Shown here: in pieces, positions 6,134-63,962 of the stretch
How the letters are laid out: the number at the start of each line of letters is the position of its first letter
Position numbering within the stretch: position 1 is the stretch's first letter
From: Candidatus Bathyarchaeota archaeon
GTDB lineage: Archaea > Thermoproteota > Bathyarchaeia > JAPDIZ01
Assembly: GCA_029259355.1 (NCBI GenBank)
Contig: JAPDIZ010000003.1
Location: 69,181-133,180 of the forward strand
Reading direction: 5' to 3'
Length of the DNA stretch: 64,000 nt
Notes under the pieces: generated by a model
What the model saw: the letters and a program-made list of their open reading frames with translations, nothing else
Told to the model about the DNA's origin: nothing
Databases searched by the model: none
Translations under genes and position numbers: made by a program

Positions 6134-6140
6134 TTTTTAA
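6134..6140 (-). promoter_or_regulatory. candidate archaeal TATA box for the tRNA at 5987-6110
   Basis: A/T-rich TTAAAAA (minus strand) about 24-30 nt upstream of the putative tRNA 5' end. Confidence 0.3.
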
Positions 6141-6255
6141 GTTTTGTAGGAGCTGCTAGTGGTGGGGGTGTAGAGTGTTCTAAGGGTTTATTGGGGAATT
6201 TTGTGCAATTGTTAGGATTACCGAAAAGTCTTTATACCTTCCTATTTCACCCTCT

Positions 6256-34714: not shown

Positions 34715-36028
34715 TTGAAAATAGGCTTGGTAACCGAGTTTTTCCCTCCCTACATACTTGGTGGAGGAGAGCTTAGCGTAAAAGAATTAGGCAAAGCGCT
34801 GGCAGAGGCTGGCGAGGAAGTTTACGTCATAACACCTAGCTACGATGGGTGGAGAGGGGAACTCAGCTTAGACGGATACACCGTCGTGTACTACCCTTTT
34901 CCCCTCAAACAAGCTTTTGATCACAGATACCTAGTCGGAAACCCCCTCTTCTTTAGGTACATGGCTAGGGAAGTTGGCAAAGCCTGTTCGAAGTATTCGA
35001 TAGAAATCTTGCACGCGCAAAACAAGTACGCCGTCCCAGGAACCATATACGCTGGGGAAAAAGCCAGCATCCCAGTTGTAGCAACGCTGAGAGATACCAT
35101 AGCTATCTGCGAATTCGGCATATGCTTGCTCAGTTTTCCACACAAACCTCCTAGGTGGTGTAGCTTCTGGAAGCGACTGCGCTGTTGCATAAACTTTCTA
35201 GAGATGTATAGCGATAGTGTCTCGACTCTGGATAAGCTAGTAAAAGCTCCTCTACTAGCTACTTACTCAGCTTACTTAGCTCGTGTCTTGAGAAGCGATC
35301 TTCGAAAAGTGGACAAGATAGTTTTCGCAAGCCAAGGGCTTCTGGAAGTCTACGCTAGCCTAGATCTCCCGCGCGAAAAGCTAGCAGTTATACCCAACAT
35401 CCCTCCTCGCATAGAGGCGAAGGCAGGGAATCACCGAGACGTTAGGAAAAGCTTAGCCGTCGGGGAAGACGCTTTTCTCGTGGTGTATGCGGGTAGGATC
35501 TCTTGGGGAAAAGGAGTCCATACGCTTTTAGAAGCTGTACGCTTGCTGATGAGAAGAGGTGAGGCAAAGAATCTGAAGGTGGCGCTGGTTGGAGGAGGCT
35601 TGGTGAACCGCTTCACAGAAATCAGCAGAGAATACGGGCTTAACGATTCTGTGATGTTTTTGGGTCCTCGCCCCCACGACTTCGTACTCTCGCTTGTTGC
35701 ATCATCTGATGCTGCTGTCATGCCATCTGTGTGGCCAGAACCTCTGAGCAGGTTTGTTCTGGAAGCTATGGTGCTATCCAAGCCCATAATCGCCACGAGA
35801 GTTGGGGGAAACCCAGACGCCGTCATAGACGGAGAAAACGGCTTCCTTGTCAAACCCAGTAGCCCCACAGAGTTAGCAAACGCTCTATCCAAGTTGATCA
35901 ACAACCCCGACCTACGCAAAAAGATGGGGGCTCGAAGCAGAGAACTCGTTAAAGAGATATTCAGCAGAGAGGAGATCGTGAAGAAAACGCTCGACCTATA
36001 TCGCGATGTGTTGGAGGCGAAGCGTTAA
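34715..36028 (+). CDS. GT4 glycosyltransferase (GT-B, group 1)
   Basis: N-terminal KIGLVTEFFPPYILGGGE; C-terminal VMPSVWPEPLSRFVLEAMVLSKPIIATRVGG. Confidence 0.8.
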   Translation: MKIGLVTEFFPPYILGGGELSVKELGKALAEAGEEVYVITPSYDGWRGELSLDGYTVVYYPFPLKQAFDHRYLVGNPLFFRYMAREVGKACSKYSIEILHAQNKYAVPGTIYAGEKASIPVVATLRDTIAICEFGICLLSFPHKPPRWCSFWKRLRCCINFLEMYSDSVSTLDKLVKAPLLATYSAYLARVLRSDLRKVDKIVFASQGLLEVYASLDLPREKLAVIPNIPPRIEAKAGNHRDVRKSLAVGEDAFLVVYAGRISWGKGVHTLLEAVRLLMRRGEAKNLKVALVGGGLVNRFTEISREYGLNDSVMFLGPRPHDFVLSLVASSDAAVMPSVWPEPLSRFVLEAMVLSKPIIATRVGGNPDAVIDGENGFLVKPSSPTELANALSKLINNPDLRKKMGARSRELVKEIFSREEIVKKTLDLYRDVLEAKR

Positions 36029-37944
36029 CGAAGACCTGATACAGACTCAAAGTCATATGCTTTATCGAGCGCGTTTATTCGGTGCACTGGATATCCTACA
36101 TCGAGTATCCTATCCGTCAGAGGGGTTTTATCCATCTCCACGCGAATCGATTTTACGTAGTAGAAATCGACGAACTCGAGGTTTTGCAAGTTCACATAGC
36201 CTATCCTGCCAGTCCATGGGTCAAAGTAAAAGGGCGAAATGCTGTTCGATGGAAAGGGAGCGCTCCTCCCTAGCCAGTTGATGACTATGAAGTCCCTCTG
36301 AGTTATTCTTACACCAAACATCTCACTACAATACTCGAAGTAGCTGATCGCGTATAGACAAGCCACCACAGTTATCGCCGCGAGTAGAGCGTAGCGAATA
36401 TACCTAGTTGCTGAGCCGAGTAGCTTGAGAACATAGCTTAACCCAACAGCTGCTAGAACGCAGGCAGGCACAGAAGATACGTAGACAAACCGGGGGATGT
36501 CTGGCGTGTCTAGGGGGAACTGCGCGTAGAACAGGCTTTGCTCAGCCAACACGACTGAGGAGAGAAGCCAAAGAACCAATAGCTTTCCTCCATACCCCTC
36601 TTCGAAAAACGCGTAAAAAAGCCCAGCTAACGTGAGCACGAAGACTATAGGCGAGAAGTTGGATACAAAGTCGAACAGAAGCCTGACAGGGACCTCGACC
36701 ACCTCCTCATAGTACATAGACACTCTTCCATAGACTATGAGGTATGTCACAGAAACAACTAACAAGCCCACAAACGCCTTTTTAGCCCAGCTCCAGCGGA
36801 GCCAGCTAGCTTCTTTCCTCGCTGTAAGCACTAAAGCTACAGCCAACATTGCGTAGATGAAAATCGACGCAGGATATGGATGCGTCAGCATCAGCGAAAA
36901 AACCATGATAGCGAGGGGGAGGAGAAGCCTATCGTCTCGCCTCTTCAAGTAGCAGAGGAAGCAGTGAGCAGCGTAAATCGAGAGAGCTACACCCATTAAG
37001 CACTTGTAGAGGTCAGAGGTGTGTCTGAGGATTCCCGGAGAGGTAGCGAAGAAAACCCCGGCAAAGGCCGCGGCTAGCTGGCTGCCAGTGAGCCTGTGGA
37101 CAAGCCCATAAGCCCCCACAGCCCCAAGCGCCATTAACAAAAGCGGCAACAGCTCAACCACCCTTATCCAGTAGGGTTTGTGGAGTGGTTGGAGAAAAGC
37201 GCCAATAGCCTCAAACGTTAGGTGAGCACCTTTGGTCATGAGCGGAAACTCGTGTGGAGAAACCCTATGCTCCAAAGTAGCGATGTAGATGGGTACGTCC
37301 CAGCCTACGGGCGCGTGAAGGCCTACGCTAGCAAATAACCGAGTGCTAACCGCTACAAGCGACACGAGAAAAAGCGGAAGAAACGAGTTCGGTGTAGTTG
37401 GCGAAGCAGTTTGTATAGTTCCTAAAGCGCCTTTCCCCCTATCAACAGCACTTTTCAAAAGAGACGAAAAGGTCCACCAATAAAGAAGCAAGAGCACAAC
37501 CTTGGTGGAAAGCTCGATCATCCAAGGTAACCTAAAGCCAGCTTGTGTTAGAGCAAATTCCACGAGGAAAGAGGGAGCTGCTACAAAGATCCACAGCTGC
37601 TGAATGGGCTTAGCGTTTCTGGGAAAAGCTAGGAGCGCATCACGTAACCAGTTCGGCGCAGCGATCCAGGCAGCTGTATAGATTGTGAAAGCGGCGAGAA
37701 GAGCAACTAGAAGTAGACGGGTAATGCCTCTCTTCAACTGGCGATGAGTTAGCCACCCCAACAGCGCTCCAAATGCTAGCGCAGCAAAGATTATTGAGCA
37801 GCATTGGCTGTGGCCAGGGTATGCGGTAAGGGCAATAGCTCCAGCACCAGTTGGTATCAGCAACAGCAGCCACGCAACTACGTCTATCCATCTTCTCCGC
37901 ACTTTGGATATACACCTGCCATCGCTCGCATAACTGCTCAACAA
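36025..37944 (-). CDS. large polytopic membrane protein, possible GT-C-like glycosyltransferase or polymerase
   Basis: 639 aa, more than 12 predicted TM helices by hydrophobicity, C-terminal soluble region; no diagnostic motif recognised. Confidence 0.4.
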   Translation of the reverse strand: MLSSYASDGRCISKVRRRWIDVVAWLLLLIPTGAGAIALTAYPGHSQCCSIIFAALAFGALLGWLTHRQLKRGITRLLLVALLAAFTIYTAAWIAAPNWLRDALLAFPRNAKPIQQLWIFVAAPSFLVEFALTQAGFRLPWMIELSTKVVLLLLYWWTFSSLLKSAVDRGKGALGTIQTASPTTPNSFLPLFLVSLVAVSTRLFASVGLHAPVGWDVPIYIATLEHRVSPHEFPLMTKGAHLTFEAIGAFLQPLHKPYWIRVVELLPLLLMALGAVGAYGLVHRLTGSQLAAAFAGVFFATSPGILRHTSDLYKCLMGVALSIYAAHCFLCYLKRRDDRLLLPLAIMVFSLMLTHPYPASIFIYAMLAVALVLTARKEASWLRWSWAKKAFVGLLVVSVTYLIVYGRVSMYYEEVVEVPVRLLFDFVSNFSPIVFVLTLAGLFYAFFEEGYGGKLLVLWLLSSVVLAEQSLFYAQFPLDTPDIPRFVYVSSVPACVLAAVGLSYVLKLLGSATRYIRYALLAAITVVACLYAISYFEYCSEMFGVRITQRDFIVINWLGRSAPFPSNSISPFYFDPWTGRIGYVNLQNLEFVDFYYVKSIRVEMDKTPLTDRILDVGYPVHRINALDKAYDFESVSGLR

Positions 37945-43421: not shown

Positions 43422-45086
43422 CTATCCCCTAACTACGTAGTATGAGCCAATACCCGTATCTGTTATGCGGTTACCCCTAGGCAGGTAAGCCAATATGGGC
43501 ACGTGAGACTCTACCAAAAAGTATCCCCTTCTCCACACCTCGGCTTTGATCACAAGCGTGCTTCCCTCTTCCCAGGGCTGAAGCCTGTACATACACCTAC
43601 ACTTCCCAAACTTCCCTGTGTAGAGCGTGTTTATCCAGTCTCCGCTTTTTACGACGTGAACTTCAGCATCCTGCATAGCCATGCCATGCTGATCTACGTA
43701 ACACCTAATCTCCACGTACTCTCTGTTGCACATTCGAGCAGAGACTTGTACGCCGTAGCAATTTCCAACCGTGTCACGCTTCATAACCCTAATCTCTCTA
43801 GCAACGTATAGAGCTCCCGCTTTGGGGTTGTTGACTCCCAGCTTTTGAAGCAGCAGCATATCCCAGTTGGTGGATTTCGACCAAGAGCTACAGACAGATT
43901 GCGCTGAAAGGTTGCGTAAGATCCTCGTCGCCACCACGTCTTGCTTGAGGTAGAAGCTATAGTTGGACACGTACTCGACGGAGTATGAAACCAGCTCGAC
44001 CCCTAGCACCGCTACCACCAAAAAGGATACCACGAGTGGGGGAACGAGCTTAGCTCTGTTTGGCAGACGCACGCCCCTCTCGTAGAGAAAAGGCCAAAAA
44101 ACCGTAGTCGAAGCAAACAGCGCTATCGGAAGCGAAGCATAACACGCAAGCCTTTCTGGGCTGCCAAAGGTGTAGATCAGCCTAACGTGCATGAGCGAAA
44201 GAGGTATGAGAGCCCAGAGAGCGAGGAAGACCAAAGCCTGCTCGTTTAGCTGCCTTCTCCTCGCAAGAGTAGGGACTGCGAAGAGCGAAGCAACCATCAA
44301 AGCAGCTAAAGACAGTCCGAAAAGGTGGACGTATGGAAAGTAGAGCACGATCGAGGGCTTAGCCCAGACTACTGGAAAGGTGTAGAATCGTACCAAGGCT
44401 TTGGCACAAGCTTCGTAAAGAACTAGGAACAAGGCGAATGCTAATAGGATGGCGGCAAACCCAGCCCTATCTCTCCTCAAAAGCTTGATCGCTGCAGCAT
44501 ACGCCAACACCACTGCGAAGGTGAAGAATAGCGTAGGTGAGTGGGTTATGAGCATTCCTACGATCAAGAGAGCGTAGATAGCCCAAGCTCTTTTCGTAGA
44601 CTCTGACATCGCTATCATCAGAGCAGTAGCTGACAGCATATAGTAAGAGAGTATGAAGGGGTAGAGGCCACAAGCCAGTGCCTCAACCTCGCGAGGCGAT
44701 AGAGCGAGTAACAGAGCCGCTAACCCACCGACTCCATGAGAGCGAGCGAATCTCCTGCCTAGAGCGTAAGCGGGGATAACGAGCAGAGCCGAGGAAACCG
44801 AAGCAAACGCCTTGGTTGCCTCAAAGATTTGGGAGAGGTCTCCGCCTCCCCAAATGGCGGTCGAGAGGCAGAGGAGGATGTGCAGAGCTGGTGGATACCT
44901 CTGCGAGATAGAGAGCTGCTCAGCCGAGAGGCTAGACATACCAAGCATTAGGAAAACGCGCTGTAGGTGAATAGCTGGATCCTCTCCAAGCGGTGGAAGC
45001 GATAGGCAGAGCAAACGCACTCGAATGAAGAGGGCGAGGAGGAAGATCAGCGAGAGCGTGAAGATGGCTTTGCTGGAGCCTCGCAA
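43422..45086 (-). CDS. polytopic membrane protein with C-terminal soluble domain (possible GT-C-like)
   Basis: 554 aa; N-terminal two-thirds strongly hydrophobic; C-terminal roughly 170 aa Cys-containing soluble domain. Confidence 0.4.
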   Translation of the reverse strand: MRGSSKAIFTLSLIFLLALFIRVRLLCLSLPPLGEDPAIHLQRVFLMLGMSSLSAEQLSISQRYPPALHILLCLSTAIWGGGDLSQIFEATKAFASVSSALLVIPAYALGRRFARSHGVGGLAALLLALSPREVEALACGLYPFILSYYMLSATALMIAMSESTKRAWAIYALLIVGMLITHSPTLFFTFAVVLAYAAAIKLLRRDRAGFAAILLAFALFLVLYEACAKALVRFYTFPVVWAKPSIVLYFPYVHLFGLSLAALMVASLFAVPTLARRRQLNEQALVFLALWALIPLSLMHVRLIYTFGSPERLACYASLPIALFASTTVFWPFLYERGVRLPNRAKLVPPLVVSFLVVAVLGVELVSYSVEYVSNYSFYLKQDVVATRILRNLSAQSVCSSWSKSTNWDMLLLQKLGVNNPKAGALYVAREIRVMKRDTVGNCYGVQVSARMCNREYVEIRCYVDQHGMAMQDAEVHVVKSGDWINTLYTGKFGKCRCMYRLQPWEEGSTLVIKAEVWRRGYFLVESHVPILAYLPRGNRITDTGIGSYYVVRG

Positions 45087-52540: not shown

Positions 52541-53600
52541 GTTTTTGCTAGACTTCACAGCGCTCTACGCAGTGTACATGATACTGTCAGTTAGCTTAAA
52601 CTTCGAGTATGGCTACTTGGGCATACCAAACTTCGGCAAGGTGCTCTTCTTCGCGGGAGGAGCCTTCATAGTTGGGGGTATGACAGCTAGGTTTGTTGCT
52701 TGGCTAGCAGGCATCGCCTACTCACCTGAGACATACTCTATTGAGAACGTCAAGCTATCTATGCAGGTTTCACAATACTTCGCTCAAAACCCCGGTGTAG
52801 CGATCTTGGTGCTGCTGTTAGCGGTTGTACTAGCTATAGGGTTCAGCGCTTTGCTGGGGCTGTTGGCTTCTTATCCCGCTATAAGGCTGAGGGAGGACTA
52901 CTTAGGCATAACGCTTCTCGCCATGGGCGAGTTGCTGAGGGTTATTGCGAGAAACTATGAGCCATGGGTTTGCGGAACATTTGGAGTGGCGGTGCCCGAT
53001 CCCTTGGCTTGGGTGCCCACCTCCCTCCACGACTTTGCCTACATCGCACTAATGCTATCCGCAGCCTTCGGCGTCTGGCTATTCACCGAGCAGCTAGCTC
53101 GCTCACCGTTTGGCAGAATGCTTAGAGCGATAAGAGACAACGAGGTAGCTGCGGCTGCGCTGGGCAAAGACGTAGTGAAGACTAGGATGAAGGTGCTGAT
53201 AGTGGGCTCGGCGATGGCTGGGCTTGCTGGAGCACTCCACGCATTCTACACCCACGCCGTCCACCCAGACGACTACATGCCCATAAGGACATTCTTGGTG
53301 TGGGTTATGGTGATTCTTGGAGGAGCTGGCAACAACGCTGGCGCTATGCTGGGCGCACTCATCTACACGCTCATCGATAGGCTCATCGCTCAGTACAAGT
53401 ACGCCATAGCAGCCCCCTTCGACGTAAACTACCTGAGCTACGTAATCTTGGGGATAGTGCTCATCCTCGTCCTTATGTACAAGCCCGAGGGAATCTTGCC
53501 AGAGAAGCCTAGCGAAACCATCGACTTTTCGCGAAAGAAGCAAGAGCTTGAACAGGCGAAGCAGTCTGGGAGAGAGCTAGAGGTGTTTTCTAGCGATTAG
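52512..53600 (+). CDS. livM: ABC transporter permease, LivM-type
   Basis: Polytopic membrane protein downstream of livH with overlapping junction. Confidence 0.75.
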   Translation: MVLGIVDPVRFLLDFTALYAVYMILSVSLNFEYGYLGIPNFGKVLFFAGGAFIVGGMTARFVAWLAGIAYSPETYSIENVKLSMQVSQYFAQNPGVAILVLLLAVVLAIGFSALLGLLASYPAIRLREDYLGITLLAMGELLRVIARNYEPWVCGTFGVAVPDPLAWVPTSLHDFAYIALMLSAAFGVWLFTEQLARSPFGRMLRAIRDNEVAAAALGKDVVKTRMKVLIVGSAMAGLAGALHAFYTHAVHPDDYMPIRTFLVWVMVILGGAGNNAGAMLGALIYTLIDRLIAQYKYAIAAPFDVNYLSYVILGIVLILVLMYKPEGILPEKPSETIDFSRKKQELEQAKQSGRELEVFSSD

Positions 53601-54452
53601 CACATACTCCCTACACCAGTATAGTGGAAACCTATTGAGTATTTTCGCTAGCAGAACTAGGGCTCTCAACAAGCTCCTCGAAAACCTCCTGTACAGTATC
53701 CAGTCAAAGTTAGCGGAGGTTTTTCGAAAGAGTAGCAGAGCCCACCTATCGCCTCCGAAGAGCTGGGCCAGCTCAGCTTCACCCATAGCTCTATCAGGTG
53801 GGGTGAGCGATCTATCAACCGAGTCCCGGTACTCGTCCTGAAGGCGCTTGATGGCTTCCCTCTTGCGCTCGAGGTGTTTTCTCGCAAGCTTAACCAACCA
53901 CCTCAGAGGCGGTGCCCCCCAAATGGGATCCATCCACTCTTCACGTGGAGCGATAACCACCACCAGCCCGTTGGGCTTAAGCACTCTCCAAACCTCGCTT
54001 ACAACAGTCTCAGCATCGTGGACGTGTTCGAGCATATGGCTGCAGAGCACCACATCCACCGAGTTGCTGCGGATAGGGAGCAGCTCCCCAGGCGAAAGCG
54101 CAAAACAAGCTTCTTTGCAGCGCTTGCTCGCTTGCCGCAGAAGAGCCTTGGAGATGTCCGATCCAAAAAAGCGTGGGGGTTTTTCGCACACAGCAGCTAT
54201 CTCGCTTAGGACAAGCCCCTCTCCGCACCCACAGTCTAAGCAGATTTGGCCATTTCTACCATCAAACACCTTCTTCCAAAGCCTTCGAAAGAAGCCTTGC
54301 CTAACCTCTCGCTCAGCAAGCCTAACGTCTCTAGGAACCTTGTAGTAGACGGTGAGCGCATGGTCGTCTAGCTCCTCATAAGCGCTGTATATGGCTGAGT
54401 ATATCTTGTCGTAAACCTCTACGTGCCTCTTAAGCCTCTTCCCCTGCTTCAA
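53577..54452 (-). CDS. class I SAM-dependent methyltransferase
   Basis: Motif I ICLDCGCGEGLVLS. Confidence 0.7.
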   Translation of the reverse strand: MKQGKRLKRHVEVYDKIYSAIYSAYEELDDHALTVYYKVPRDVRLAEREVRQGFFRRLWKKVFDGRNGQICLDCGCGEGLVLSEIAAVCEKPPRFFGSDISKALLRQASKRCKEACFALSPGELLPIRSNSVDVVLCSHMLEHVHDAETVVSEVWRVLKPNGLVVVIAPREEWMDPIWGAPPLRWLVKLARKHLERKREAIKRLQDEYRDSVDRSLTPPDRAMGEAELAQLFGGDRWALLLFRKTSANFDWILYRRFSRSLLRALVLLAKILNRFPLYWCREYVLIARKHL

Positions 54453-55914
54453 TACTGACCTCCTCTATCCAATACTCTACCACCCAGTAGCCGCTATCGA
54501 ACAACCTGATCTGTCCAGAGCTTGAAGCTGAGCGCTCCACCACCACGTATGCAGGAGGCTTCGTCACATAGCTTGGCGTAAGTGGGTATGCCCACCACCA
54601 ATGCCCCACCCCATATGCGGTGAGAACAGGTTCAGCCCCTCTCTCCACAACAAACGAGTATACCAAGCTCTCCTCCCAAGATATTCCGTAAAAACCCACC
54701 GACTTCTCAACCACTACTCGAGCCATAAGCGTTGCCCAAACCCCTTGGATTAAGATAAGCACCGCGACCAAAGCAAGCGCGAGCACCCAGACCCACCTAG
54801 AGGGGAGAGGAAGGCGCAGAGCCTCCGCTGCATCGCGTAGGAGCAAGGCGAGGGCAAAAATTCCTAGAGTGCTTAAGCAGAGAACGGGGTACGTTAGGTA
54901 CTGGATGAAACGGGCTATGGCATATTCGCCCACAACTCCTGAAGCGATGAGGAGGTGAGGAGCAACCACCCAAGCAGCAATCGCTTCCCTGGCCAAGGAC
55001 GAAGAGCTTTCTCGCTTCATCGCCAAGTAGACCACTCCAAGCATAGCGAGCGCAGTATAGGGGAGGAAGTAGCTTGCGAGGTAGAAGTTTTTCAGTGCCA
55101 AGACTCTCCAATCGCTCACCAAGCCTTTTTTAGGAAGCTGCTCAGCTATGCGAAGCCCACGAACAAGCGATTGAGCAGCTCTCGAAGTCATCGATCTGCT
55201 CTCTACAAACAAGTTAACGCTGTTTACCTCTTGATGCCAAGCATATGCGTAGGCGGTTGCACCTATCAACGCAACCAAAACCCACAGCCAGTCCAGCCGC
55301 TTCTTCGCCAACGCGTAGAGAGTGAGTAGCAAAAGCGTCGAGAAGGCCACAGCGGGGGTGGAGAGGTGCAGAGACCCAGCGAATGAGAGAATCAGGAAGA
55401 CAACTAGGGCTTCTCGAGCGCCAACTCGCTTGCTCGAAACAAATGCAAGGAGAAGGGCTACAAAGAAAAAACCTATGGCTGTTGGGTAGCCTCCCCACGA
55501 ATACACTAACAGATCGTTTATCGAAAGCGCGACGAAGGTGGAGGCGAGGAGAGCAAAGCTTCTTCCCAGCTTAGAGCACAGGCAATACACTGCAAGCACT
55601 GACAAAGAGTTTAGGGTGATGGAGATTAGAGTGAGCGCGGTCAGCGCTTGGAGAGCGTCTAGAGAAGAAGCTGTGGCTACGCAAGCAGCGACCACGTGGA
55701 TTGAAGATGCGTAGACTCTCCACGCATCTATCCAAAAGTACCCAAGCCGATCTACATTCTCTATGGCCAAAACCTGCGAGAGGTGTCTACCCGCATCACT
55801 TCCGCAGCCAGCGTATCCATCGAAGCCGTAGGCTTTCACCGAAAAGCTGAGCACAAGGATTAGGGCTAAAGTTAGCTTGCGCATACATAAGCGCGATCTA
55901 AGCTCTTCAGCCAA
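54430..55914 (-). CDS. polytopic membrane protein with C-terminal soluble domain (possible GT-C-like glycosyltransferase or polymerase)
   Basis: 494 aa, more than 10 hydrophobic helices; 23-nt overlap with the downstream methyltransferase. Confidence 0.4.
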   Translation of the reverse strand: MAEELRSRLCMRKLTLALILVLSFSVKAYGFDGYAGCGSDAGRHLSQVLAIENVDRLGYFWIDAWRVYASSIHVVAACVATASSLDALQALTALTLISITLNSLSVLAVYCLCSKLGRSFALLASTFVALSINDLLVYSWGGYPTAIGFFFVALLLAFVSSKRVGAREALVVFLILSFAGSLHLSTPAVAFSTLLLLTLYALAKKRLDWLWVLVALIGATAYAYAWHQEVNSVNLFVESRSMTSRAAQSLVRGLRIAEQLPKKGLVSDWRVLALKNFYLASYFLPYTALAMLGVVYLAMKRESSSSLAREAIAAWVVAPHLLIASGVVGEYAIARFIQYLTYPVLCLSTLGIFALALLLRDAAEALRLPLPSRWVWVLALALVAVLILIQGVWATLMARVVVEKSVGFYGISWEESLVYSFVVERGAEPVLTAYGVGHWWWAYPLTPSYVTKPPAYVVVERSASSSGQIRLFDSGYWVVEYWIEEVSIEAGEEA

Positions 55915-55972: not shown

Positions 55973-56986
55973 GTGAGACCAGCATTGACTCAAGTGCTTT
56001 TGGCTTTACAACTCCTTGCATCGATGGCTTTATCGTTTGCAGCTACGTACATCCTCGTACCACTAGCCATAGAGAGGCTAACAGCTAGAGGTATCTTCGG
56101 CGTAGATGTCCACAAACCTACTCAGCCCCGAGTGCCAGAGATGGGTGGAGTAGCATTTGTTGGAGGATACCTGCTTGGAATGCTATACCTCCTCACCGCA
56201 TTCCCTGGCTACATAACCCCCATACTGGCTGCGCTTTGCAGCATACTGATGATCTGTTTGATGGGGATGCTTGACGACATACTCGACCTAAGCCAGAGGA
56301 CCAAAGCAACCCTTCCACTAATAGCATCCCTTCCGCTGATAATAGCTGTGAGCAGCGACCGCGCCATGCTCATCCCCCTCATCGGTCGAGTCCAGCTAGG
56401 CCTCATCTACCCCTTCCTCTTGGTTCCCATAGGCGTCACAGCTGCGTCCAACTTAACTAATCTATTAGCAGGGTTCAACGGCTTAGAAGCGGGTATGGGG
56501 ATAATCGCTCTCTCCTCTCTGGTGATATCTGCCCTGTTAATAGGACACGATTTATGCGCAGTGATAGCAGCGCCCATGATCGGCGCACTAGCCGCTTTCT
56601 TCCTCTTCAACCGATACCCAGCTAGGATCTTCCCGGGAAACGCGGGCACCTTCTCGATAGGTGCTGTGGTTGCTGCAGCCGTTATACTGGGCGATATGGA
56701 GGTTATAGGCGTAATATGCCTCATGCCCTACATCATAGAGTTCTTCATCAAAGCAAGAACCAAGTTCAAGGGGGTTTGCTTCGGCGTTCTAAACCCCGAC
56801 GGAACGCTTTCTCCGCCAAGAGGCAAGCACGTCGAGTCCTTAACCCACATCCTCATGCTCAACGGAAGATGCACTGAAAAGGGTTTGGTGTATAGGCTGC
56901 TGCTCATAGAAGCATTCTTTGGCACGATAGCCATAGTTGTAGCTCACTTAAGCCTCTACTTCATTCTACTCAGACCAGTCAGCTAG
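55973..56986 (+). CDS. MraY/WecA-family UDP-HexNAc:polyprenyl-phosphate HexNAc-1-phosphate transferase (AglH-like)
   Basis: MGMLDDILDLS (D-D motif), NLTNLLAGFNGLEAG, FPGNAG; paralog of 12521-13486. Confidence 0.8.
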   Translation: MRPALTQVLLALQLLASMALSFAATYILVPLAIERLTARGIFGVDVHKPTQPRVPEMGGVAFVGGYLLGMLYLLTAFPGYITPILAALCSILMICLMGMLDDILDLSQRTKATLPLIASLPLIIAVSSDRAMLIPLIGRVQLGLIYPFLLVPIGVTAASNLTNLLAGFNGLEAGMGIIALSSLVISALLIGHDLCAVIAAPMIGALAAFFLFNRYPARIFPGNAGTFSIGAVVAAAVILGDMEVIGVICLMPYIIEFFIKARTKFKGVCFGVLNPDGTLSPPRGKHVESLTHILMLNGRCTEKGLVYRLLLIEAFFGTIAIVVAHLSLYFILLRPVS

Positions 56987-56991: not shown

Positions 56992-57433
56992 GAAGTAGGG
57001 GTTGTTGCAAGCAATCCACGCAAGCTGGAGTATGCTGTAGACGAAGTAGGCAGCGATCAGCGCGTAACTAGCCATGCGCTCACGCAGCGAAGCAGTTTGG
57101 AGCGCACCACAGGCAATGACCATCGCCAGCAGTGGAGTAGCAGCCAGCATGTACCTCGCCTCCTTGTGTATGAATAAGGAGTGTGCAAAGAGCTAGTGCG
57201 AAAGCATTAGCTGAAATAAACCAAGTCTTTTGATCTCCACGTAACAGAGCTATTAGCACAAGGTACAGCGCTGGGCCAAAGATTGCGAAGAAACAGTAGT
57301 AGAAGAACTCTGGGGGAGAGGAGTACTGTATGAGCAAAACCTGCTCTGTGTTTAGGTTAAAGGTTAGGAAGCGCCAAGGTGACTTAAACGGAACTCCATA
57401 AACCACGTAATCTAAGAGAGCTTGAATTGCCAT
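56992..57433 (-). pseudogene. frameshifted small membrane protein gene (possibly GtrA-like)
   Basis: One frame gives MAIQALLDYVVYGVPF...LLIHTQGG (57080-57433); a different frame continues ...EARYMLAATPLLAMVIACGALQTAS...MASYALIAAYFVYSILQLAWIACNNPYFW to a stop near 56992. Both halves are hydrophobic and protein-like. Confidence 0.4.
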
Positions 57434-57982
57434 AGCTACCGAGAAGCCAGCGACATAGGGAAAAGCAGCTTTGGAGAAGCGGTGAAGCTGGGGTTTAAAG
57501 AGGCTAGAGGAGACATAATCGTCCCAGTGATGAGGGATAGATCCGATATCCCTAAGCTACTGAAAGCTGTTCTCTCAGGCTACGACATAGCCATAGGCTC
57601 GAGGTTCATCAAGGGATCCAAGCTCGTAGGCCACCCGAGGTGGAAGCTATCCGCCAACAGGCTATACAACGCTTTGCTAATGGTTGTTACGGGGAGGAGG
57701 ATATCCGACTTCACCAACGCCTTCAAAGCATACAAAGGGGAAGTGCTAGATGGGATTAACCCAAGCTCGAGAAGCTTCGACATAACAGCGGAAATCGCGC
57801 TGAAGGCTGTGTTCATGGGAGCAAGAATGGTCGAAGTTCCCGTAGAGTGGAGAGGAAGAAGCAAAGGAGAGGCTAAGTTTAAGCTAACCGTTGGAGCAAG
57901 CTACCTCGCTACGCTGCTCAGGGTTTGGGTAGAGGGAATTGTGGGTAGAGCCTTATCCAAAGCTCGACGAGTTGTGTGGTGA
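57422..57982 (+). pseudogene. 5'-truncated GT2 (Dpm1-like) glycosyltransferase remnant
   Basis: Aligns to residues about 75 onward of the GT2 at 16059-16808 (GEAVKLGFKEARGD vs GEGTARIEGFNRS); the N-terminal nucleotide-binding region is absent and the catalytic MDADLSHPP position reads MRDRSDIP. Confidence 0.5.
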
Positions 57983-58080: not shown

Positions 58081-59136
58081 AAAGTAGTCATAACTGGAGG
58101 ATTAGGCTTCATAGGCTTCAACTTCGCTACGCACTTCCTCAGAAGCTATCGAGAAGACGGTGTAGAGGTCGTGTTAGTCGACAACTTATCGGATCCGAGC
58201 GGGGGAGCTTACAAAAACATGGTAACGCTTCTCAGACACCATGGAGAGGATGTTGAGAAGGGTTTGCTGAGGATCGTTCCAACAGATGTGAGAGATTTTG
58301 AAGCTCTTCGCCAGACGTTGAGAGATGCAGACACCGTCCTACACTTCGCTGCTCAAGTAGCTATGAAGCCCTCGCTCGAAGACCCCATAACCGATTTTGA
58401 GATAAACGCGCGCGGAACGCTAAACGTCTTAGAAGCTGCGAGGAGATCGGAATCGAACCCCGTGATGCTCTACACCTCAACTAACAAGGTGTATGGACGG
58501 CTCGATAGAGTACCACTAGTGGAGAAGGAGCTTCGCTGGGACTACTCAGAGGATTCGCCATACTATGAGGGAATTACCGAGGATTACCCGCTCGACATAG
58601 GAGGGCCTTACGGCATAAGCAAGTGCGCAGGCGACATGTACTTTCGAGAATACGCCAAAACCTACGGCATGAAGACCATAGTCTTCCGTATGTCAGCCGT
58701 ATATGGTGAGAACCAGTACACAACCGAAGTACACGGCTGGGTTGGGTGGGTTATCTCGCGAGCGCTTTTGAAAAAGCCCCTAACCATATTCGGCGATGGA
58801 AAACAGGTTCGTGGAGTGTTGCACGTGCAAGACCTAATCGAAGCGTTTGAGCTTGCGCAAAAAAACATCAACCGAGTTAGGGGTGAGGCATTCAACATAG
58901 GGGGAAACCGCCGAAACTCTCTCTCCATCCTCGAGCTGCTCAAGCTGCTCAAGGAGAGATACGGCGTCGCTCCCTCTGAGGTTAGGTATGCGAATTGGAG
59001 AAAAGTGGATCAGAAGTGCTTCATAGCTAACTGCCGAAAAGCTTTGGAGTACTTTGGGTGGAGGCAGAAGATAAGTAAGGAAGAAGGCATCGACCGGATG
59101 ATCGCTTGGGTTCGGCAAAACATCGCCGATAGCTAG
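58081..59136 (+). CDS. NAD-dependent nucleotide-sugar epimerase/dehydratase (paralog of 30705-31847), no canonical start codon for the Rossmann motif
   Basis: Frame-1 translation from 58081 gives KVVITGGLGFIGFNFATHFL...; Y-x3-K (YGISKCAGD); first in-frame ATG/GTG/TTG is GTG at 58171, after the Rossmann motif. Confidence 0.7.
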   Translation, partial: KVVITGGLGFIGFNFATHFLRSYREDGVEVVLVDNLSDPSGGAYKNMVTLLRHHGEDVEKGLLRIVPTDVRDFEALRQTLRDADTVLHFAAQVAMKPSLEDPITDFEINARGTLNVLEAARRSESNPVMLYTSTNKVYGRLDRVPLVEKELRWDYSEDSPYYEGITEDYPLDIGGPYGISKCAGDMYFREYAKTYGMKTIVFRMSAVYGENQYTTEVHGWVGWVISRALLKKPLTIFGDGKQVRGVLHVQDLIEAFELAQKNINRVRGEAFNIGGNRRNSLSILELLKLLKERYGVAPSEVRYANWRKVDQKCFIANCRKALEYFGWRQKISKEEGIDRMIAWVRQNIADS

Positions 59137-60587
59137 CGAACCAGCTTCTCATATTTTCTCAGCCACTTGATAATTCGAGGTTCTAGAGGAAGCTTGAGGA
59201 AGCGCGTCTTCCACCGAATACTCTCGATTTTGCCCAAAGCCTCTAAAAGAACTCCGAGAGATTTCTTCGAAACCTTGTGCTTTAAGCTGGGGTGGTGTAC
59301 TAGCCACGTGATGAAGCACAGCTCCTCCAACATTTCTCCATACTCTTTGGTGAGCCAAGGGGAAACCGCAACGTCGTATGAGAAGAACGCCCACTCCTCC
59401 AAGCTCCTTGGCTCCCTTAAACCGTGTTTGAGCGAGAACTCATAGAGAGGAGTCCCTGGGTATGGTGTGTAGATGAAGAGGGAGAGGTGAGATTCTGGGT
59501 TGATTTCGCGAAGCTTCTCCATAACCCTGATCGTCATGTAGACATCACCGTAGGTTTCGCCGGGAAAACCAACCATGAAAGAGTATTCGGGAACGATGCC
59601 GAATTTCTTGCACTTCTCCGCAGACCTCAGGATATCGCTTACCGTTATGTCCTTCTTGATGAGCTCAAGTATTCTAGGGGATCCAGATTCTGCGCCTAGA
59701 AGCAGAGAGCGGCAGCCGCTTCTGCTAATCCAGCCCATAAGCTCATCGCTAAAACCCGCTACATAGTCGCATCTGCAGCTCGCGCTCCAACCAATGTCCA
59801 AACCCTCCTCAACAATGCCTCTGCATATCTCAACAACTCTTCTTCTGTCCACGAAGAAGTTGTCGTCTTGGAAGCGAACACCCTTGATGCGGTAGCGCCA
59901 AACGAGGCTCTTCAGCTCCTCAACAACTCTCCTCGACGATAGGGGAAACCACTTTCTGCCATAGAAACGAGATATCGCGCAAAACGCGCAGCGATGCACA
60001 CACCCACGGCTCGTTATGTAGTCTAAGGTTTTGTCAGAAGCTTCATCTTTAACGCAGTATTTCTCAACGTTGATTAAGTGGTAGGCAAGCGGGGGAAACT
60101 TATTCACATCCTCCAGCAGCCTCTCGGGATTATGCTGAACTTCTCTACCATACTTGTAAGATAAGCCTAGCAACCCCTTTAGCTCGTCTCCCTTCTCTAG
60201 CCGCTGCACAAGCTCTAGTAGCGTAAGCTCTCCTTGCCCTCTCACCACAGCATCTACCAAGGGGTGGCTAACTGTCTGCTCAGGAAGAAGCGTTGGGTGG
60301 AAGCCTCCCCAGACGACAAAGGCTCCCTGCTCCTTCGCGGCAGCCGAAGCAGCCAAGCCGTCTCTGATTTGAAAGCCCGTCATCGAGCTTACTCCAATGC
60401 AGAGAGCGGAGCGCGATAGCTTCCTGATGGTATGCTCAAAGTCATCATCCAGCCTAGCGTCTACTATTTCCACCTCATAACCTGCTTTCTCGAGAACAGG
60501 TGCTAGCGCTAACAGCGAAAGGGGGGCTCTGTTGACCGGAACCCCAGTTCGGGGATAGAAGAGAACTACCCTCCCGCTCAAGCCCAA
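59133..60587 (-). CDS. B12-binding-domain radical SAM enzyme (class B radical SAM)
   Basis: N-terminal cobalamin-binding-like domain (VVLFYPRTG...EVEIVDARLDD); radical SAM CxxxCxxC (CVHRCAFCAIS); 484 aa. Confidence 0.8.
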   Translation of the reverse strand: MGLSGRVVLFYPRTGVPVNRAPLSLLALAPVLEKAGYEVEIVDARLDDDFEHTIRKLSRSALCIGVSSMTGFQIRDGLAASAAAKEQGAFVVWGGFHPTLLPEQTVSHPLVDAVVRGQGELTLLELVQRLEKGDELKGLLGLSYKYGREVQHNPERLLEDVNKFPPLAYHLINVEKYCVKDEASDKTLDYITSRGCVHRCAFCAISRFYGRKWFPLSSRRVVEELKSLVWRYRIKGVRFQDDNFFVDRRRVVEICRGIVEEGLDIGWSASCRCDYVAGFSDELMGWISRSGCRSLLLGAESGSPRILELIKKDITVSDILRSAEKCKKFGIVPEYSFMVGFPGETYGDVYMTIRVMEKLREINPESHLSLFIYTPYPGTPLYEFSLKHGLREPRSLEEWAFFSYDVAVSPWLTKEYGEMLEELCFITWLVHHPSLKHKVSKKSLGVLLEALGKIESIRWKTRFLKLPLEPRIIKWLRKYEKLVR

Positions 60588-60632: not shown

Positions 60633-60851
60633 CTAAAGATAGCCAAGCGCTCTCAGCCTTCGCTTTATCTCTTCTTCCTCCTCCGGGCTATAGGGATACT
60701 CTTCACCCTCTTCTTCTTTGAGGAGTTCGGTGAGCACGAACTCGATAAACTCTTCTACGTCTTTGAAAGCTCCCTCACTTTCCTTGACTTTCTCCTCAAT
60801 TTTTTGGTAAAGCGATTTGGGGATGGATATAGTTACCTTCTCTGCGCTCAT
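60633..60851 (-). CDS. small ribbon-helix-helix-like protein with acidic C-terminal tail
   Basis: KVTISIPKSLYQKIEEKV (RHH-like strand/helix) followed by a Glu-rich tail; start overlaps the cysC stop by 4 nt. Confidence 0.5.
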   Translation of the reverse strand: MSAEKVTISIPKSLYQKIEEKVKESEGAFKDVEEFIEFVLTELLKEEEGEEYPYSPEEEEEIKRRLRALGYL

Positions 60852-61402
60852 CCTCGCACCATCCTTGGAGGCTCTTCTATGTACCCAAGGTTTTTCAAAG
60901 TTTCCAAAATCTTCTCCACACAGCTGTCTGGGCTTTCAGCTTCCGTATCCAGTACGACCTCGGGGTTCTCTGGCTCCTCGTACACGTCCTGTATACCAGT
61001 CATATCGCTTATCTCACCCCTTAAGGCTCTTCTGTACAAGCCCTTGGGGTCTCTGCGGATGCAAGTTTCTAGAGAGCACTTAACGTATACCTCGACAAAG
61101 TCTTTGATGAGTTCTCTGGCAAACCTCCTCACCGAGCGGTAGGGCGAGACAAACGATGCGATAACCACAACTCCGTTGCGAGCTAATAGGTGGCTGACGT
61201 ATGCTACTCTGCGGAGGTGCCTCTCCCGATCCTCTCTGCTAAAGCCCGCCTCAGGGCTAAGCCACTTCCTCACCTCATCCCCATCCAAAACCTCTACGGG
61301 GAAGCCATAGGTTCTCAGCACGGGCTCAAGCTTCCTAGCTATGGTAGTCTTTCCAGAGCTAGGAAGCCCGGTCAGCCAGATGACGAAGCCACGGCGCATC
61401 AC
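60848..61402 (-). CDS. cysC: adenylylsulfate (APS) kinase
   Basis: P-loop GLPSSGKTT; ASFVSPY; DPKGLYRRALRGEI...TGIQDVYEEP; 184 aa. Confidence 0.9.
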   Translation of the reverse strand: MMRRGFVIWLTGLPSSGKTTIARKLEPVLRTYGFPVEVLDGDEVRKWLSPEAGFSREDRERHLRRVAYVSHLLARNGVVVIASFVSPYRSVRRFARELIKDFVEVYVKCSLETCIRRDPKGLYRRALRGEISDMTGIQDVYEEPENPEVVLDTEAESPDSCVEKILETLKNLGYIEEPPRMVRG

Positions 61403-62790
61403 ACAGCCTCCACTAGGGACCGCCCCCTCAACCCAATAGGTTTCTCCAAACCAAAGAGCTCGAAAAGGGTGGGGGCTATGTCGTAGATAGATGCGCTCCT
61501 CCTCCCTTGACTTATCCTTCCCTCGGGGTCGTGCAGTATGTATACTCCGTGCATTGAGTGTACTGCATCATCTGGGCCTATGTCGTTTTCCGGAAGATAC
61601 ATGGTTCCATGGCCAAGCGTGCCCGCTGACCTCCAGTAGAGGTCGTCGAAGTAGACGAGGAGATCTGGGTAATCCCCCGATACGGTGGAGTAGAGCTGCT
61701 CAGGCTTGTAGACCTTAGTTTCCATTCTCCTACCGCTTGGATCGTCTATTTTTCGAAGCTCATCAGCTAGCTCCTCCCTAAAAGATTCGTAGCTGCTGGG
61801 GTCTATAACACCCCTAGGCTCTCTTCCCCTGACGTTGATGAAGATTCTTGCGTAGTATCCTCCCCACCCCCATGCCTTGGTGCGATCCCAGTCTACGGAT
61901 AGCTTTTCTAGGTCTACGACGCCCCCTGGCTTATGCTTGATGACCAAGTATCCCTTTTCGATGAGCCATTCGTTGACGCAGAAAGCACCCCTCATCCCCT
62001 TCGCTCCATGGTCTGAAACAACCAAGATGAGCACATCTTTTCCAACCACCTTCAAGAGCTCAGCGATTTTCTGGTCAACATACTTGTAGTAGTCTTCGAT
62101 AACGTGCTCAAACTCGTTTCCCGGAGTGTAGAGGTGGTGCGTAGGGTCGAAGAACTTCCAAAACGCGTGGTGGACACGATCAACACCGATCTCAACGAAC
62201 ATGAAGAAATCCCACTTTTTGCGCGAAGCCAAGTGGTTTATCGCCTTAAAGTGCAGATCCGTCATGTGATACAGCTCTCGAAGAAGCCGTTTCCGCTGCT
62301 CAGTCCTAAACTCCACATCAAAGACATACTTCTCGCCAATTACCCTCTCGATCTCAAATCTAAGCAGTGAGGGGTAGGTGTACTGCTTATCAGCTGAGGG
62401 AGTTATGAAGCAAGACACCCAGCACCCCTTGACAGGCTTTGGTGGATATCCTGGAGGCACGCTTACTATGCAAGAGCGCATTCCTCTCTTCGAAAGCTCG
62501 TCCCAAACAGCGGGGTACTTGACGCTATGGGAGTTCACGATGTATGTCTCGTCATAGGAACCCAGCTTCCTATGCCTAAAGCCATACATCCCAAGCTCTC
62601 CAGGCTCTCTCCCAGTAGCCATAACGATCCACGCGGGAATCGTTATTGGAGGATGACAACTCTCCAAAGAGCCGTAGAAGCCCCCATCCATCAAGGAGGA
62701 TATGGTTGGCAGAGAATCTCTAAACCTCTCGAAAACCAGCTCTGGAGGAGCACAGTCTAAGCCAATCACCAAAACTCTATTGCTCCTCAT
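61399..62790 (-). CDS. alkaline-phosphatase-superfamily enzyme (type I phosphodiesterase / nucleotide pyrophosphatase-like), function unknown
   Basis: N-terminal VLVIGLDCAPPEL and mid-protein LILVVSDHGA resemble metal-ligand motifs of the PF01663-like alkaline phosphatase fold (from memory); 4-nt overlap with cysC. Confidence 0.55.
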   Translation of the reverse strand: MRSNRVLVIGLDCAPPELVFERFRDSLPTISSLMDGGFYGSLESCHPPITIPAWIVMATGREPGELGMYGFRHRKLGSYDETYIVNSHSVKYPAVWDELSKRGMRSCIVSVPPGYPPKPVKGCWVSCFITPSADKQYTYPSLLRFEIERVIGEKYVFDVEFRTEQRKRLLRELYHMTDLHFKAINHLASRKKWDFFMFVEIGVDRVHHAFWKFFDPTHHLYTPGNEFEHVIEDYYKYVDQKIAELLKVVGKDVLILVVSDHGAKGMRGAFCVNEWLIEKGYLVIKHKPGGVVDLEKLSVDWDRTKAWGWGGYYARIFINVRGREPRGVIDPSSYESFREELADELRKIDDPSGRRMETKVYKPEQLYSTVSGDYPDLLVYFDDLYWRSAGTLGHGTMYLPENDIGPDDAVHSMHGVYILHDPEGRISQGRRSASIYDIAPTLFELFGLEKPIGLRGRSLVEAV

Positions 62791-62795: not shown

Positions 62796-63962
62796 TCACT
62801 CCACAAAGGGCTTTTCGTAAGATAGCAGAACCTCAGCAACCTCTGGCCTAACCATGTAGGGCGGGGGTCGCTCCCTCCTGCTTATCAATTCCCTAAGCTT
62901 GGTGCCGCTAAACCTTACCCTAAGCTCCTCGCTATGCGGGCATATCTTCTCATTAACTATCCCGCCGCACTTTTCGCAGTAGAGGAACTCTCTGAAGAAG
63001 AGGGGGACTATGCCTAGGTCTGGGAACTGCTTGAAAATCTCCTGAGCCTCATATGGCCCGTAGTAGTTACCTACGCCTGCGTGGTCTCTACCCACGATGA
63101 AGTGCGTACACCCAAAGTTCTTCCTCATTATGGCGTGGTGAACAGCCTCTCTCGGCCCAGCGTAGCGCATTTGATACCGCAATATGCTCAAAACGACGGT
63201 GTCTTTCGGGAAGTAGTTCTTGGTGAGGACATCGTAAGCTCTCAAAATGACTTCGTCGCGAAAATCCCCTCTCTTCTTCCTACCTATCACTGGGTTTATG
63301 AATAGGCCATCTACGAAGGCTAGCGCCGACTTCTGGAGGTACTCGTGGCCGAGGTGGGGGGCGTTTCTCGTCTGAAAGCCCACGACCGTCCTCCAACCCC
63401 TCTCCCTAAACAAAACTCTCGTCTCAATAGGTCGGAGAGTGTAGCGGTAGAAGGGGTTTGGCGCTTCTCCAATGAGCTCTATTTCCCCTCCAATCAGCAG
63501 CTCCTTCGCTGAATAAAGCTTAGCCACACCAGGGTGGTTTGCATCCCGTGTCTTGAACACCTTCTCCGCGTACTCACCCCTATCCCAAGGATAAACCTCC
63601 TCAACGCGGAGAACTGCAAGAGGTGTTTCGCTAAAGAAGAGAGCAGCTTCATCACCCTCCCTAAGCTCGCCCAAATCCTCCTTAGAGACATCGAGGACTA
63701 TAGGGATAGTCCAAGGAAGACCATTCAGCAACCTCATCTCATAGAGAACGCTCTCAAGCTCATCTCGGCACAAAAAGCCCGTCAACGGGCTGTATATCCC
63801 ATGACCAATGTTCTCGAGGTCTAGGGCGTGATCCTCATCTACGTATATCCTATGCATTTCCCTAGACTCGATTAGTAGGCGCTGAAGCCTAGCTCCCTTG
63901 GCGACGCGAACCACCAACGAGCCGCCGTGAGGCTTCGACACCAAGCTCTCCGCAGCCTCCAC
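62796..63962 (-). CDS. sat: sulfate adenylyltransferase (ATP sulfurylase)
   Basis: QTRNAPHLGHEYL and VGRDHAGVG motifs; N-terminal PUA-like domain; 388 aa. Confidence 0.9.
   Translation of the reverse strand: MEAAESLVSKPHGGSLVVRVAKGARLQRLLIESREMHRIYVDEDHALDLENIGHGIYSPLTGFLCRDELESVLYEMRLLNGLPWTIPIVLDVSKEDLGELREGDEAALFFSETPLAVLRVEEVYPWDRGEYAEKVFKTRDANHPGVAKLYSAKELLIGGEIELIGEAPNPFYRYTLRPIETRVLFRERGWRTVVGFQTRNAPHLGHEYLQKSALAFVDGLFINPVIGRKKRGDFRDEVILRAYDVLTKNYFPKDTVVLSILRYQMRYAGPREAVHHAIMRKNFGCTHFIVGRDHAGVGNYYGPYEAQEIFKQFPDLGIVPLFFREFLYCEKCGGIVNEKICPHSEELRVRFSGTKLRELISRRERPPPYMVRPEVAEVLLSYEKPFVE

Follow-up and report, generated by a model that had tools for sequence, protein, structure and literature searches.

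We investigated the surroundings of a single gene in a 64-kb stretch of the contig JAPDIZ010000003.1 from a Candidatus Bathyarchaeota archaeon (this whole stretch is termed the window). The gene encodes a class B, or B12-binding, radical S-adenosylmethionine (SAM) enzyme, hereafter rSAM, and we tentatively propose that this enzyme tailors a hexose during the synthesis of a surface glycan or glycolipid. Its open reading frame (ORF) occupies positions 59133-60587 of the minus strand, exactly where an earlier note drawn from the letters of this DNA had placed it, and codes for 484 aa from a TTG start codon; another TTG in frame lies 6 nt downstream of it. On one side the gene converges with that of a short-chain dehydrogenase/reductase (SDR), the stop codon of which overlaps the rSAM 3' end by 4 nt. 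On the other side and on the same strand, 45 nt separate it from an ORF resembling ribbon-helix-helix (RHH) proteins, upstream of which lie the sulfate-activation genes cysC, an AlkP-superfamily gene and sat. The position between an epimerase and the operon for 3'-phosphoadenosine-5'-phosphosulfate (PAPS) synthesis described in the earlier note is thus correct.

The N-terminal Rossmann-like B12-binding domain of rSAM (residues 22-126, positions 60210-60524, minus strand, checked in translation) matches Pfam PF02310 with 55.0 bits against a cutoff of 32.1 (E 8.8e-15) and includes a WGGxHP stretch found invariant in alignments of the family. The radical SAM core (residues 190-354, positions 59526-60020, minus strand) matches PF04055 with 79.8 bits against a cutoff of 29.5 (E 3.4e-22), and within it the translated CX3CX2C motif of the [4Fe-4S] cluster reads CVHRCAFC (residues 196-203, positions 59979-60002, minus strand). 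The three cysteines C196, C200 and C203 show no variation across a 38-sequence alignment and likewise in a second alignment. An AlphaFold2 model built on the 38-sequence alignment reached a pLDDT of 92.4 and a pTM of 0.90, with beta and alpha elements alternating across residues 6-132. Its best Foldseek matches in the PDB were TsrM (E 5e-25), AprD4, OxsB, MgmA, CysS and TokK, with TM-scores of 0.66-0.74 (0.69-0.71 for AprD4) and a probability of 1.0. Domains, motif and fold together go far beyond chance and confirm that this is a real class B radical SAM gene, as the earlier note had claimed. The three-part architecture is common to rSAM and the solved class B enzymes TsrM (6wte), OxsB (5ul4), TokK (7kdx), MgmA/QCMT (9ccb) and CysS (9n1d), from which it is nevertheless set apart by an identity of only 17-22% and by scores under every curated cutoff.

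Cobalamin binding by rSAM may be expected from its N-terminal domain; in B12-binding radical SAM enzymes, the cofactor is held base-off with no DxHxxG motif, and no sequence signature of its binding is known (PMC12931638). The model suggests a soluble or peripheral-membrane protein in which a [4Fe-4S]/SAM TIM-barrel stands between an N-terminal Rossmann domain of cobalamin type and a C-terminal domain that is basic and helical; no transmembrane segment was predicted in rSAM. The C-terminal tail (about residues 440-484, positions 59133-59270, minus strand) is basic and amphipathic by charge count and helical moment. It carries 13 K/R against 4 D/E, and the helix at residues 467-484 has a hydrophobic moment (muH) of 0.63, some 2.7 standard deviations over the protein mean, so that the tail is possibly a membrane-interface element.

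Placement among radical SAM families

The class B radical SAM enzymes comprise over 220,000 members, of which only a few dozen have been characterised; most of the latter are methylases, and every group of their sequence similarity network that has a characterised member includes C-methyltransferases (PMC12931638). rSAM was placed by its scores against NCBIfam models and by its matches to PDB sequences and folds, the curated families compared being HpnJ, BchE, ApyD, PhpK, HpnR, MgmA, BzaD, ladderane rSAM, TsrM, AprD4, KedN5, ArsL and others. Twenty-seven NCBIfam models matched rSAM and in none of them was the equivalog cutoff reached. The best scores were those of HpnJ (140.9 bits, cutoff 577.6), ApyD (132, cutoff 750) and BchE (131.8, cutoff 481), followed by MJ_1487 (120.7, cutoff 251), PhpK (116.6, cutoff 600) and MgmA (99.3, cutoff 360), and a subfamily model for C-methyltransferases of ribosomally synthesised peptides with post-translational modifications (RiPPs) gave 75.8 bits. 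Scores are thus flat over methylases and non-methylases, three- to five-fold under the cutoffs. Among PDB sequences the best match was AprD4 (E 8.4e-15), and MgmA (9ccb) was found at E 9e-13. Judged by the curated models, rSAM belongs to no characterised or housekeeping family; clustering with housekeeping enzymes, which the earlier note had named as evidence against its own suggestion, was not seen.

A search of 5.8 billion proteins returned 2023 homologues at E<=1e-5. Only five of them are 47-51% identical to rSAM (P0002-P0006), after which come hundreds at 36-42%, spread over many bacterial and archaeal phyla and none of them characterised. A profile of the close group, compared to 1.84 billion representatives at 50% identity, found one at 932 bits and the next at 566 bits, below which lies a continuum, with over 150 representatives scoring at least 399 bits and 15,958 reaching E<=1e-30. 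In a neighbour-joining tree of 325 sequences, rSAM groups only with P0002-P0006 (bootstrap 60/100) and the deeper nodes do not resolve. By these comparisons rSAM sits in a small orthologue clade within a very large uncharacterised subfamily. One clade member, P0006 (positions 451-1901 of locus L092), is split, an 80-aa ORF with the N-terminus preceding a 403-aa gene, which reflects either a frameshift or a sequencing error.

The rSAM-SDR cassette and its neighbourhoods

The convergent SDR (positions 58084-59136, plus strand) matches TaTyvE (9rl0) with 272 bits and 1orr with 241 bits over residues 2-345, the next family scoring 117 bits, and it has both YGISK, the catalytic YxxxK, and STNKVYG. 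These matches mark it as a homologue of CDP-tyvelose 2-epimerase (TyvE) and not as a generic epimerase. The 9rl0 enzyme interconverts CDP-glucose and CDP-mannose (PMC13098431). A contig of the same species (L081, 99% identical) has the gene order GT2, GT2, Wzx flippase, sat, AlkP, cysC, RHH, rSAM, SDR, GT2, PMT_2, GT4, where GT stands for glycosyltransferase family. The locus of a sister taxon (L173; AlkP protein 81% identical, DNA 70-85%) is collinear throughout with that of the window but lacks exactly rSAM and SDR: it retains sat, AlkP, cysC and RHH, then GT2, PMT_2 and GT4, and 192 bp beginning directly after the RHH stop codon stand in place of 2.7 kb. Because both genes are missing together, rSAM and SDR constitute a 2.7-kb two-gene accessory cassette. 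Horizontal transfer of this cassette was considered and rejected, since its GC and GC3 match those of the host and are indistinguishable from them. A related trio, made up of a TyvE-like SDR (43% identity), a GT2 and an rSAM (41% identity), was found in an unrelated AT-rich metagenome contig (L106). The epimerase to which the earlier note had drawn attention is the informative partner, a TyvE homologue gained or lost with rSAM; its start codon is lost in the window strain.

The genes around the orthologues of rSAM, in which ORFs were called by a simple longest-ORF rule, are to a large extent glycosylation genes. GT2 genes of AglJ/DPM1 type occur in every context of the 47-51% relatives, usually together with a PMT_2 gene for a glycosyltransferase of the GT-C class. 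A seven-gene module, in the order PMT_2, phytoene-desaturase-like flavoprotein (PRK07233), DUF362, GT2, GT2, B12-rSAM paralogue and orthologue, was observed in L083-L085, L089-L091, L093-L097 and L108. Its first GT2 is arsenosugar/MftF-like and its second AglJ/ArnC-like, its oxidase is HpnE-like at 58 bits, and the paralogue is 33% identical and more BchE/HpnJ-like (215-230 bits). The second GT2 and the intact GT2 of L081 both match the AglJ, ArnC, DPhHxTase and PpgS models; the partner GT2 is about 245 aa long and scores well below the equivalog cutoffs. The more divergent orthologue in L092 is accompanied by two PMT_2 genes, one GT2 and one methyltransferase, and a 41-50% relative (L086) by a GT2, a UDP-glucose dehydrogenase and sugar methyltransferases.

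When loci were grouped by the identity of their homologue to rSAM, glycan genes lay within 3 kb in 12 of the 13 loci at >=44% identity, in 7 of 13 at 38-44%, in 28 of 73 at 33-38% and in 10 of 60 below 33%. Close orthologues thus stand among glycan genes across genomes, a comparison that the earlier note had suggested, and the consistency of these settings makes a sugar or lipid-linked sugar a reasonable substrate. The association fades with distance and therefore function is not to be transferred across the broad family. In the surroundings of the orthologues no conserved small ORF that could be a RiPP precursor was found; the short ORFs seen in L083, L084 and L091 are mutually unrelated. Likewise, the window, L081, L173 and all orthologue loci were found to lack tes, grs, gms and AttH hydratase genes as well as other lipid-synthesis genes. 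An apparent 'Rosetta-stone' fusion of rSAM with GT1 and MT11 domains (P0007, on a Logan contig) was rejected as probable read-through of decayed genes. Its N-terminal 275 residues hold only fragments of a methyltransferase (positions 48-94 of 95) and of a GT1 (2-92 of 172), for which reason it served as neighbourhood evidence only.

More distant homologues present a different picture. When the neighbours in 80 GTDB loci were clustered de novo, two to five tandem paralogues were seen in 59 of 82 loci. In Acidobacteriota and others (L003, L009, L016, L021, L023, L026, L028, L037, L045 and similar loci), arrays of three to five B12-rSAM paralogues are partnered by a SPASM radical SAM protein, a methyltransferase-amidohydrolase fusion, further methyltransferases, NTP_transf_5 and an HprK-like protein. 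These clusters represent a recurrent and apparently undescribed type, possibly one making a RiPP-like or heavily methylated product; not being glycan-specific, they are uninformative for the orthologue.

Sulfate activation, locus decay and the wider window

The sulfate-activation unit consists of four minus-strand genes with gaps or overlaps of at most 5 nt. In order of their direction, these are ATP sulfurylase (sat, 62796-63962; NF003166, 532.8 bits, cutoff 387), an AlkP-superfamily protein (61399-62790; PF01663, 162 bits), adenosine 5'-phosphosulfate (APS) kinase (cysC, 60848-61402; PF01583, 194.9 bits; TIGR00455, 214 bits, cutoff 138.7) and a 72-aa acidic ORF (60633-60851), the ATG of which overlaps the cysC stop. 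The sequence of this ORF, MSAEKVTISIPKSLYQKIEEKVK...RRLRALGYL, is RHH-like by eye, and Pfam assigned it to no family above threshold. In L081 it is conserved at 100%, and L173 has an equal-length counterpart at the same position; because it is kept in both we assign it to the sat-AlkP-cysC unit. The proteins of the window were compared by tblastn with 86 and then with 80 further homologue loci. In none of some 160 other homologue loci, every orthologue locus included, were sat, cysC or AlkP found; only the same-species contig L081 has them beside rSAM. A conserved link between the PAPS genes and rSAM was accordingly rejected. Moreover, the 45-nt spacer before rSAM is part of the cassette and has T5 and T6 runs that may act as termination signals in archaea, which leaves co-transcription of rSAM with the PAPS unit uncertain. 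That rSAM lies close to the sulfate-activation genes is a local trait of the lineage, and the PAPS genes, which the earlier note took as a functional clue, are a positional one only, the more so as L173 keeps the unit in the absence of rSAM. No sulfotransferase was recognised in the window, even by low-stringency Pfam scans of the unassigned proteins. An extra sulfatase-family gene (PF00884) lies in L173 at positions 5562-6971, with the GT2 pair on one side and the Wzx flippase on the other, and is not present in the species of the window.

The AlkP protein deserves separate mention. Homologues 55-67% identical to it occur in Bathyarchaeia, Nitrososphaerales, Hydrothermarchaeota, several Asgard groups, Verstraetearchaeota and some bacteria. 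In Candidatus Hecatella orcuttiae the gene adjoins that of APS kinase, and P0199 and P0212 are AlkP-APS kinase fusions. We found no literature on such coupling. The protein could be a hydrolase of PAP or PAPS (PAP, 3'-phosphoadenosine 5'-phosphate) or a sulfuryl transferase of AlkP type, and its tight and wide coupling, sometimes by fusion, to archaeal APS kinase may be the more general lead.

On the other flank of the cassette, the locus is decaying in the window strain. An AglJ/DPM1/ArnC-type GT2 (57422-57982, plus strand) is a remnant which, when aligned with the intact genes of L081 and L173, lacks the first ~68 residues and displays an internal 4-codon deletion and many replacements. Next to it, a PMT_2/GT22 glycosyltransferase of the GT-C class is reduced to a C-terminal remnant of 117 aa (57080-57433, minus strand) as compared to 469 aa in L081. 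Both genes are truncated by a deletion of about 1.2 kb relative to L081, the junction of which was mapped by blastn of L081 and L082 to positions 57458-57472, at the microhomology AGCAGCTTT. The same junction is present in L082, an independent assembly, and we therefore consider the deletion to be a population variant and not an assembly error. The SDR start reads GTA in the window and GTG in L081. Since the first canonical start, at 58171, lies downstream of the GxxGxxG NAD motif, the SDR is probably untranslated or truncated in the window strain. The sat operon and rSAM are intact with mostly synonymous differences, rSAM differing from its L081 counterpart at 4 nt (3 synonymous, 1 non-synonymous). 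With inactivating lesions in the GT2, GT-C and SDR partners, the pathway proposed below is probably broken in this strain. The surviving rSAM is either a recent relic or an enzyme for which these partners are not strictly needed.

Most of the window is a glycosylation island with genes for sugar nucleotidyltransferases, a phosphoglucomutase, a UDP-glucose dehydrogenase, a DegT aminotransferase, three SDRs and methyltransferases, together with two initiating transferases of the GT4 family, six or more GT1 genes and four or more GT2 genes. A GT4-family polyprenyl-phosphate sugar-1-phosphate transferase of AglH/WecA/MraY type (55973-56986, plus strand; PF00953, 116 bits) is conserved in L081 and L173. 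A 494-aa polytopic membrane protein with no family assigned in Pfam (54430-55914, minus strand) and a class I SAM methyltransferase (Methyltransf_11; 53577-54452, minus strand) are conserved members of the locus, as judged from L173. The former is one of four large proteins with no Pfam match at E<=1 (17887-20127, 36025-37944, 43422-45086 and 54430-55914; 746, 639, 554 and 494 aa), each of which might be a polymerase or an oligosaccharyltransferase-like or other GT-C enzyme. The start of the window has another two radical SAM genes. The first (1878-3014, plus strand) has a C-terminal HHH_3 motif. The second (530-1837, minus strand) encodes a tRNA methylthiotransferase of MtaB/CDKAL1 type for which Pfam reports no TRAM domain (PF01938), most homologues carrying one; its named homologues, at 45-51% identity, are all from Bathyarchaeota/Bathyarchaeia or Thermoproteota. 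The window also has the archaeal markers ThiN, DUF1616 and Trm112, and its host is accordingly taken to be an archaeon with described Bathyarchaeia as distant relatives. Rfam and tRNA scans detected no rRNA, tRNA or Rfam family in the window.

A proposed tailoring role for rSAM and its rivals

We propose, with a probability of roughly 0.4, that rSAM is a tailoring enzyme of surface-glycan or glycolipid synthesis which modifies a hexose by radical chemistry, most probably by cobalamin-mediated C-methylation. In the envisaged pathway, the TyvE-like SDR would invert C-2 of a nucleoside diphosphate-hexose and the AglJ/DPM1-type GT2 would attach this hexose to dolichyl phosphate or a different lipid. 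Next, rSAM would modify the hexose at the nucleotide-sugar or the lipid-linked stage, and the PMT_2-type GT-C enzyme would move the modified sugar to an extracytoplasmic acceptor. If the modification is a methylation, a 5'-deoxyadenosyl radical would take a hydrogen atom from the sugar and methyl-cobalamin would give the CH3 group. The basic amphipathic C-terminus would be compatible with a membrane-anchored substrate. PAPS made by sat-AlkP-cysC might serve to sulfate the same or another glycan, with no mechanistic tie to rSAM. It is to be noted that the substrate is suggested by synteny only, and that the methylation chemistry and the order of steps are likewise conjectural.

Parts of this scheme have precedents. 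GenK/GenD1/Fms7, MoeK5, Fom3 and AprD4 are also class B radical SAM proteins that act on carbohydrate and are encoded in glycosyltransferase-rich clusters. GenK/GenD1/Fms7 perform aminoglycoside C-methylation and MoeK5 C-methylates a lipid-linked uronic acid in moenomycin synthesis. These systems belong to bacterial secondary metabolism, whereas rSAM stands in an archaeal cell-surface glycan locus, and the likeness is one of description, extending to sequence for AprD4. The pairing of a GT2 synthase with a GT-C transferase beside the orthologues is found in the ArnC/ArnT, PpgS/Rv3779, AglJ and DPM1/PMT pathways; to our knowledge, none of the known pathways of these types includes a radical SAM tailoring step.

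Several observations weigh against this proposal. Some B12-domain proteins, such as AprD4-like proteins and ArsL, do not bind cobalamin. The top NCBIfam matches of rSAM are non-methylases, all equally low, and the clade that defines its orthologues has a bootstrap of just 60 in a neighbour-joining tree. The set of orthologue contexts is small and in part not independent, with most of them from three or four related organisms, and the orthologue modules outside the window have no TyvE-like SDR. Instead, the phytoene-desaturase-like oxidase and the DUF362 gene of these modules would suit a lipid substrate just as well. Among fully flanked, mostly distant loci, glycan genes are no more frequent close to the homologue (13 of 50) than at 6-9 kb from it (10 of 50). 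In the window strain rSAM survives while its proposed partners are dead. Finally, non-methylating members of class B are inseparable from methylases by sequence or structure (PMC12931638).

This last point bears directly on an unlikely alternative, that rSAM acts on the same glycan or glycolipid hexose by a radical rearrangement or redox step instead of methylation. Candidate reactions are the contraction of the ring to a cyclitol that has been proposed for HpnJ and calditol synthase (Cds), oxidative ring contraction (OxsB), 1,2-diol dehydration (AprD4) and oxidation or cyclisation (BchE). The ranking of HpnJ, ApyD and BchE as best curated matches speaks for it. So does AprD4, a sugar diol-dehydratase (paromamine 1,2-diol dehydratase, 6fd2) that does not use cobalamin, as best PDB sequence match and as one of the best structural matches. 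The hopanoid pathway also pairs a GT2, HpnI, with a radical SAM enzyme, HpnJ being proposed to act on a hexose joined to a membrane lipid by HpnI (PMC13459092). However, the scores that favour these families are just as flat across methylases and far under the cutoffs, even for HpnJ, the enzyme of hopanoid cyclitol-ether formation. Furthermore, it is the paralogue of the seven-gene module, not the orthologue, that is the more HpnJ/BchE-like, and the predominance of methylases among characterised class B enzymes points the other way. rSAM also differs from HpnJ and Cds in having no hopanoid or calditol context, and the acid-environment restriction of the Cds type is not evident.

A role in modifying the chains or backbone of archaeal lipids (isoprenoid tails of archaeol or of glycerol dialkyl glycerol tetraethers (GDGTs), or glycerol), like GrsA/GrsB, Gmm, Cgm/Pgm and Ted, appears improbable. 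The earlier note had described the GDGT ring synthases as radical SAM enzymes of the same general kind, and the literature indeed places GrsA/B among B12-binding radical SAM proteins (PMC13459092). The host is an archaeon related to Bathyarchaeia, and archaeal B12-rSAM lipid enzymes form a growing set that includes a bathyarchaeal one (bioRxiv 10.1101/2025.10.20.683597; PMC13459092). With GrsA/GrsB, Gmm, Cgm/Pgm and Ted rSAM shares an archaeal host, class B architecture and possible peripheral membrane association, its basic amphipathic C-terminus resembling what is predicted for the archaeal lipid B12-rSAMs. Also in favour of a lipid substrate are the PRK07233 oxidase of the orthologue loci and a Caroten_synth gene 7 kb off in L081 and L173. 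Yet none of the lipid-synthesis genes looked for lies near any orthologue, and rSAM is accessory, being missing from an otherwise identical sister locus, and co-varies with a nucleotide-sugar epimerase. The recurrence of the SDR-GT2-rSAM trio in L106 and the hundreds of bacterial homologues at 36-42% identity argue in the same direction. rSAM differs from the lipid enzymes in its context; the Grs/Gmm family itself is defined at a level of about 31-34% identity and E <= 1e-60. Of the sugar or lipid substrate put forward by the earlier note, the glycan part is therefore favoured by the genes around close orthologues, and nothing in the locus is specific to GDGT ring synthesis.

It seems quite improbable that rSAM is tied to sulfate activation, preparing an acceptor carbon or forming a C-S bond in co-transcription with sat-AlkP-cysC. 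The tight packing of the unit up to the RHH ORF, 45 nt before rSAM on the same strand, would fit such a role, as would the lack of a recognisable sulfotransferase in the window and the ability of class B enzymes to form thioether bonds, exemplified by ThnL. Against it stand the absence of sat, cysC and AlkP from all other homologue loci, the persistence of sat-AlkP-cysC-RHH in L173 without rSAM, the wide occurrence of AlkP-cysC pairs and fusions without rSAM, and the spacer, which has the T5/T6 runs and is part of the cassette rather than of the conserved backbone. Modification of a RiPP or protein by a C-methyltransferase like PoyC, MgmA or ApyD, to which the ApyD, MgmA and RiPP subfamily matches and the RiPP-like arrays of distant Acidobacteriota homologues with SPASM radical SAM proteins might point, is very improbable, given that no small ORF is conserved near the orthologues, that the 72-aa ORF is RHH-like and persists in L173 without rSAM, that no RiPP-recognition, protease or transporter genes were found and that orthologue contexts are all of glycan type.

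For now, rSAM adds one unassigned member to a very large family. In the stronger form of the tailoring proposal, the cassette would provide archaeal surface glycosylation with its first radical SAM step that depends on cobalamin: a C-methylated or rearranged hexose would be built on dolichyl phosphate and exported onto the cell envelope by a GT-C enzyme, in a locus that also serves glycan sulfation. We consider this form doubtful, if worth entertaining. No enzyme of class B is known to us that takes part in the glycosylation of archaeal proteins or lipids, or that acts on a polyprenyl-phosphate sugar. The TyvE-like 2-epimerase, the AglJ-type GT2 and rSAM make up a compact and testable trio. 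If the proposal is true, a new branched or rearranged sugar would exist in uncultured archaea related to Bathyarchaeia, and the gain and loss of the cassette, together with the decay of its partners, would constitute a strain-level switch of surface chemistry.

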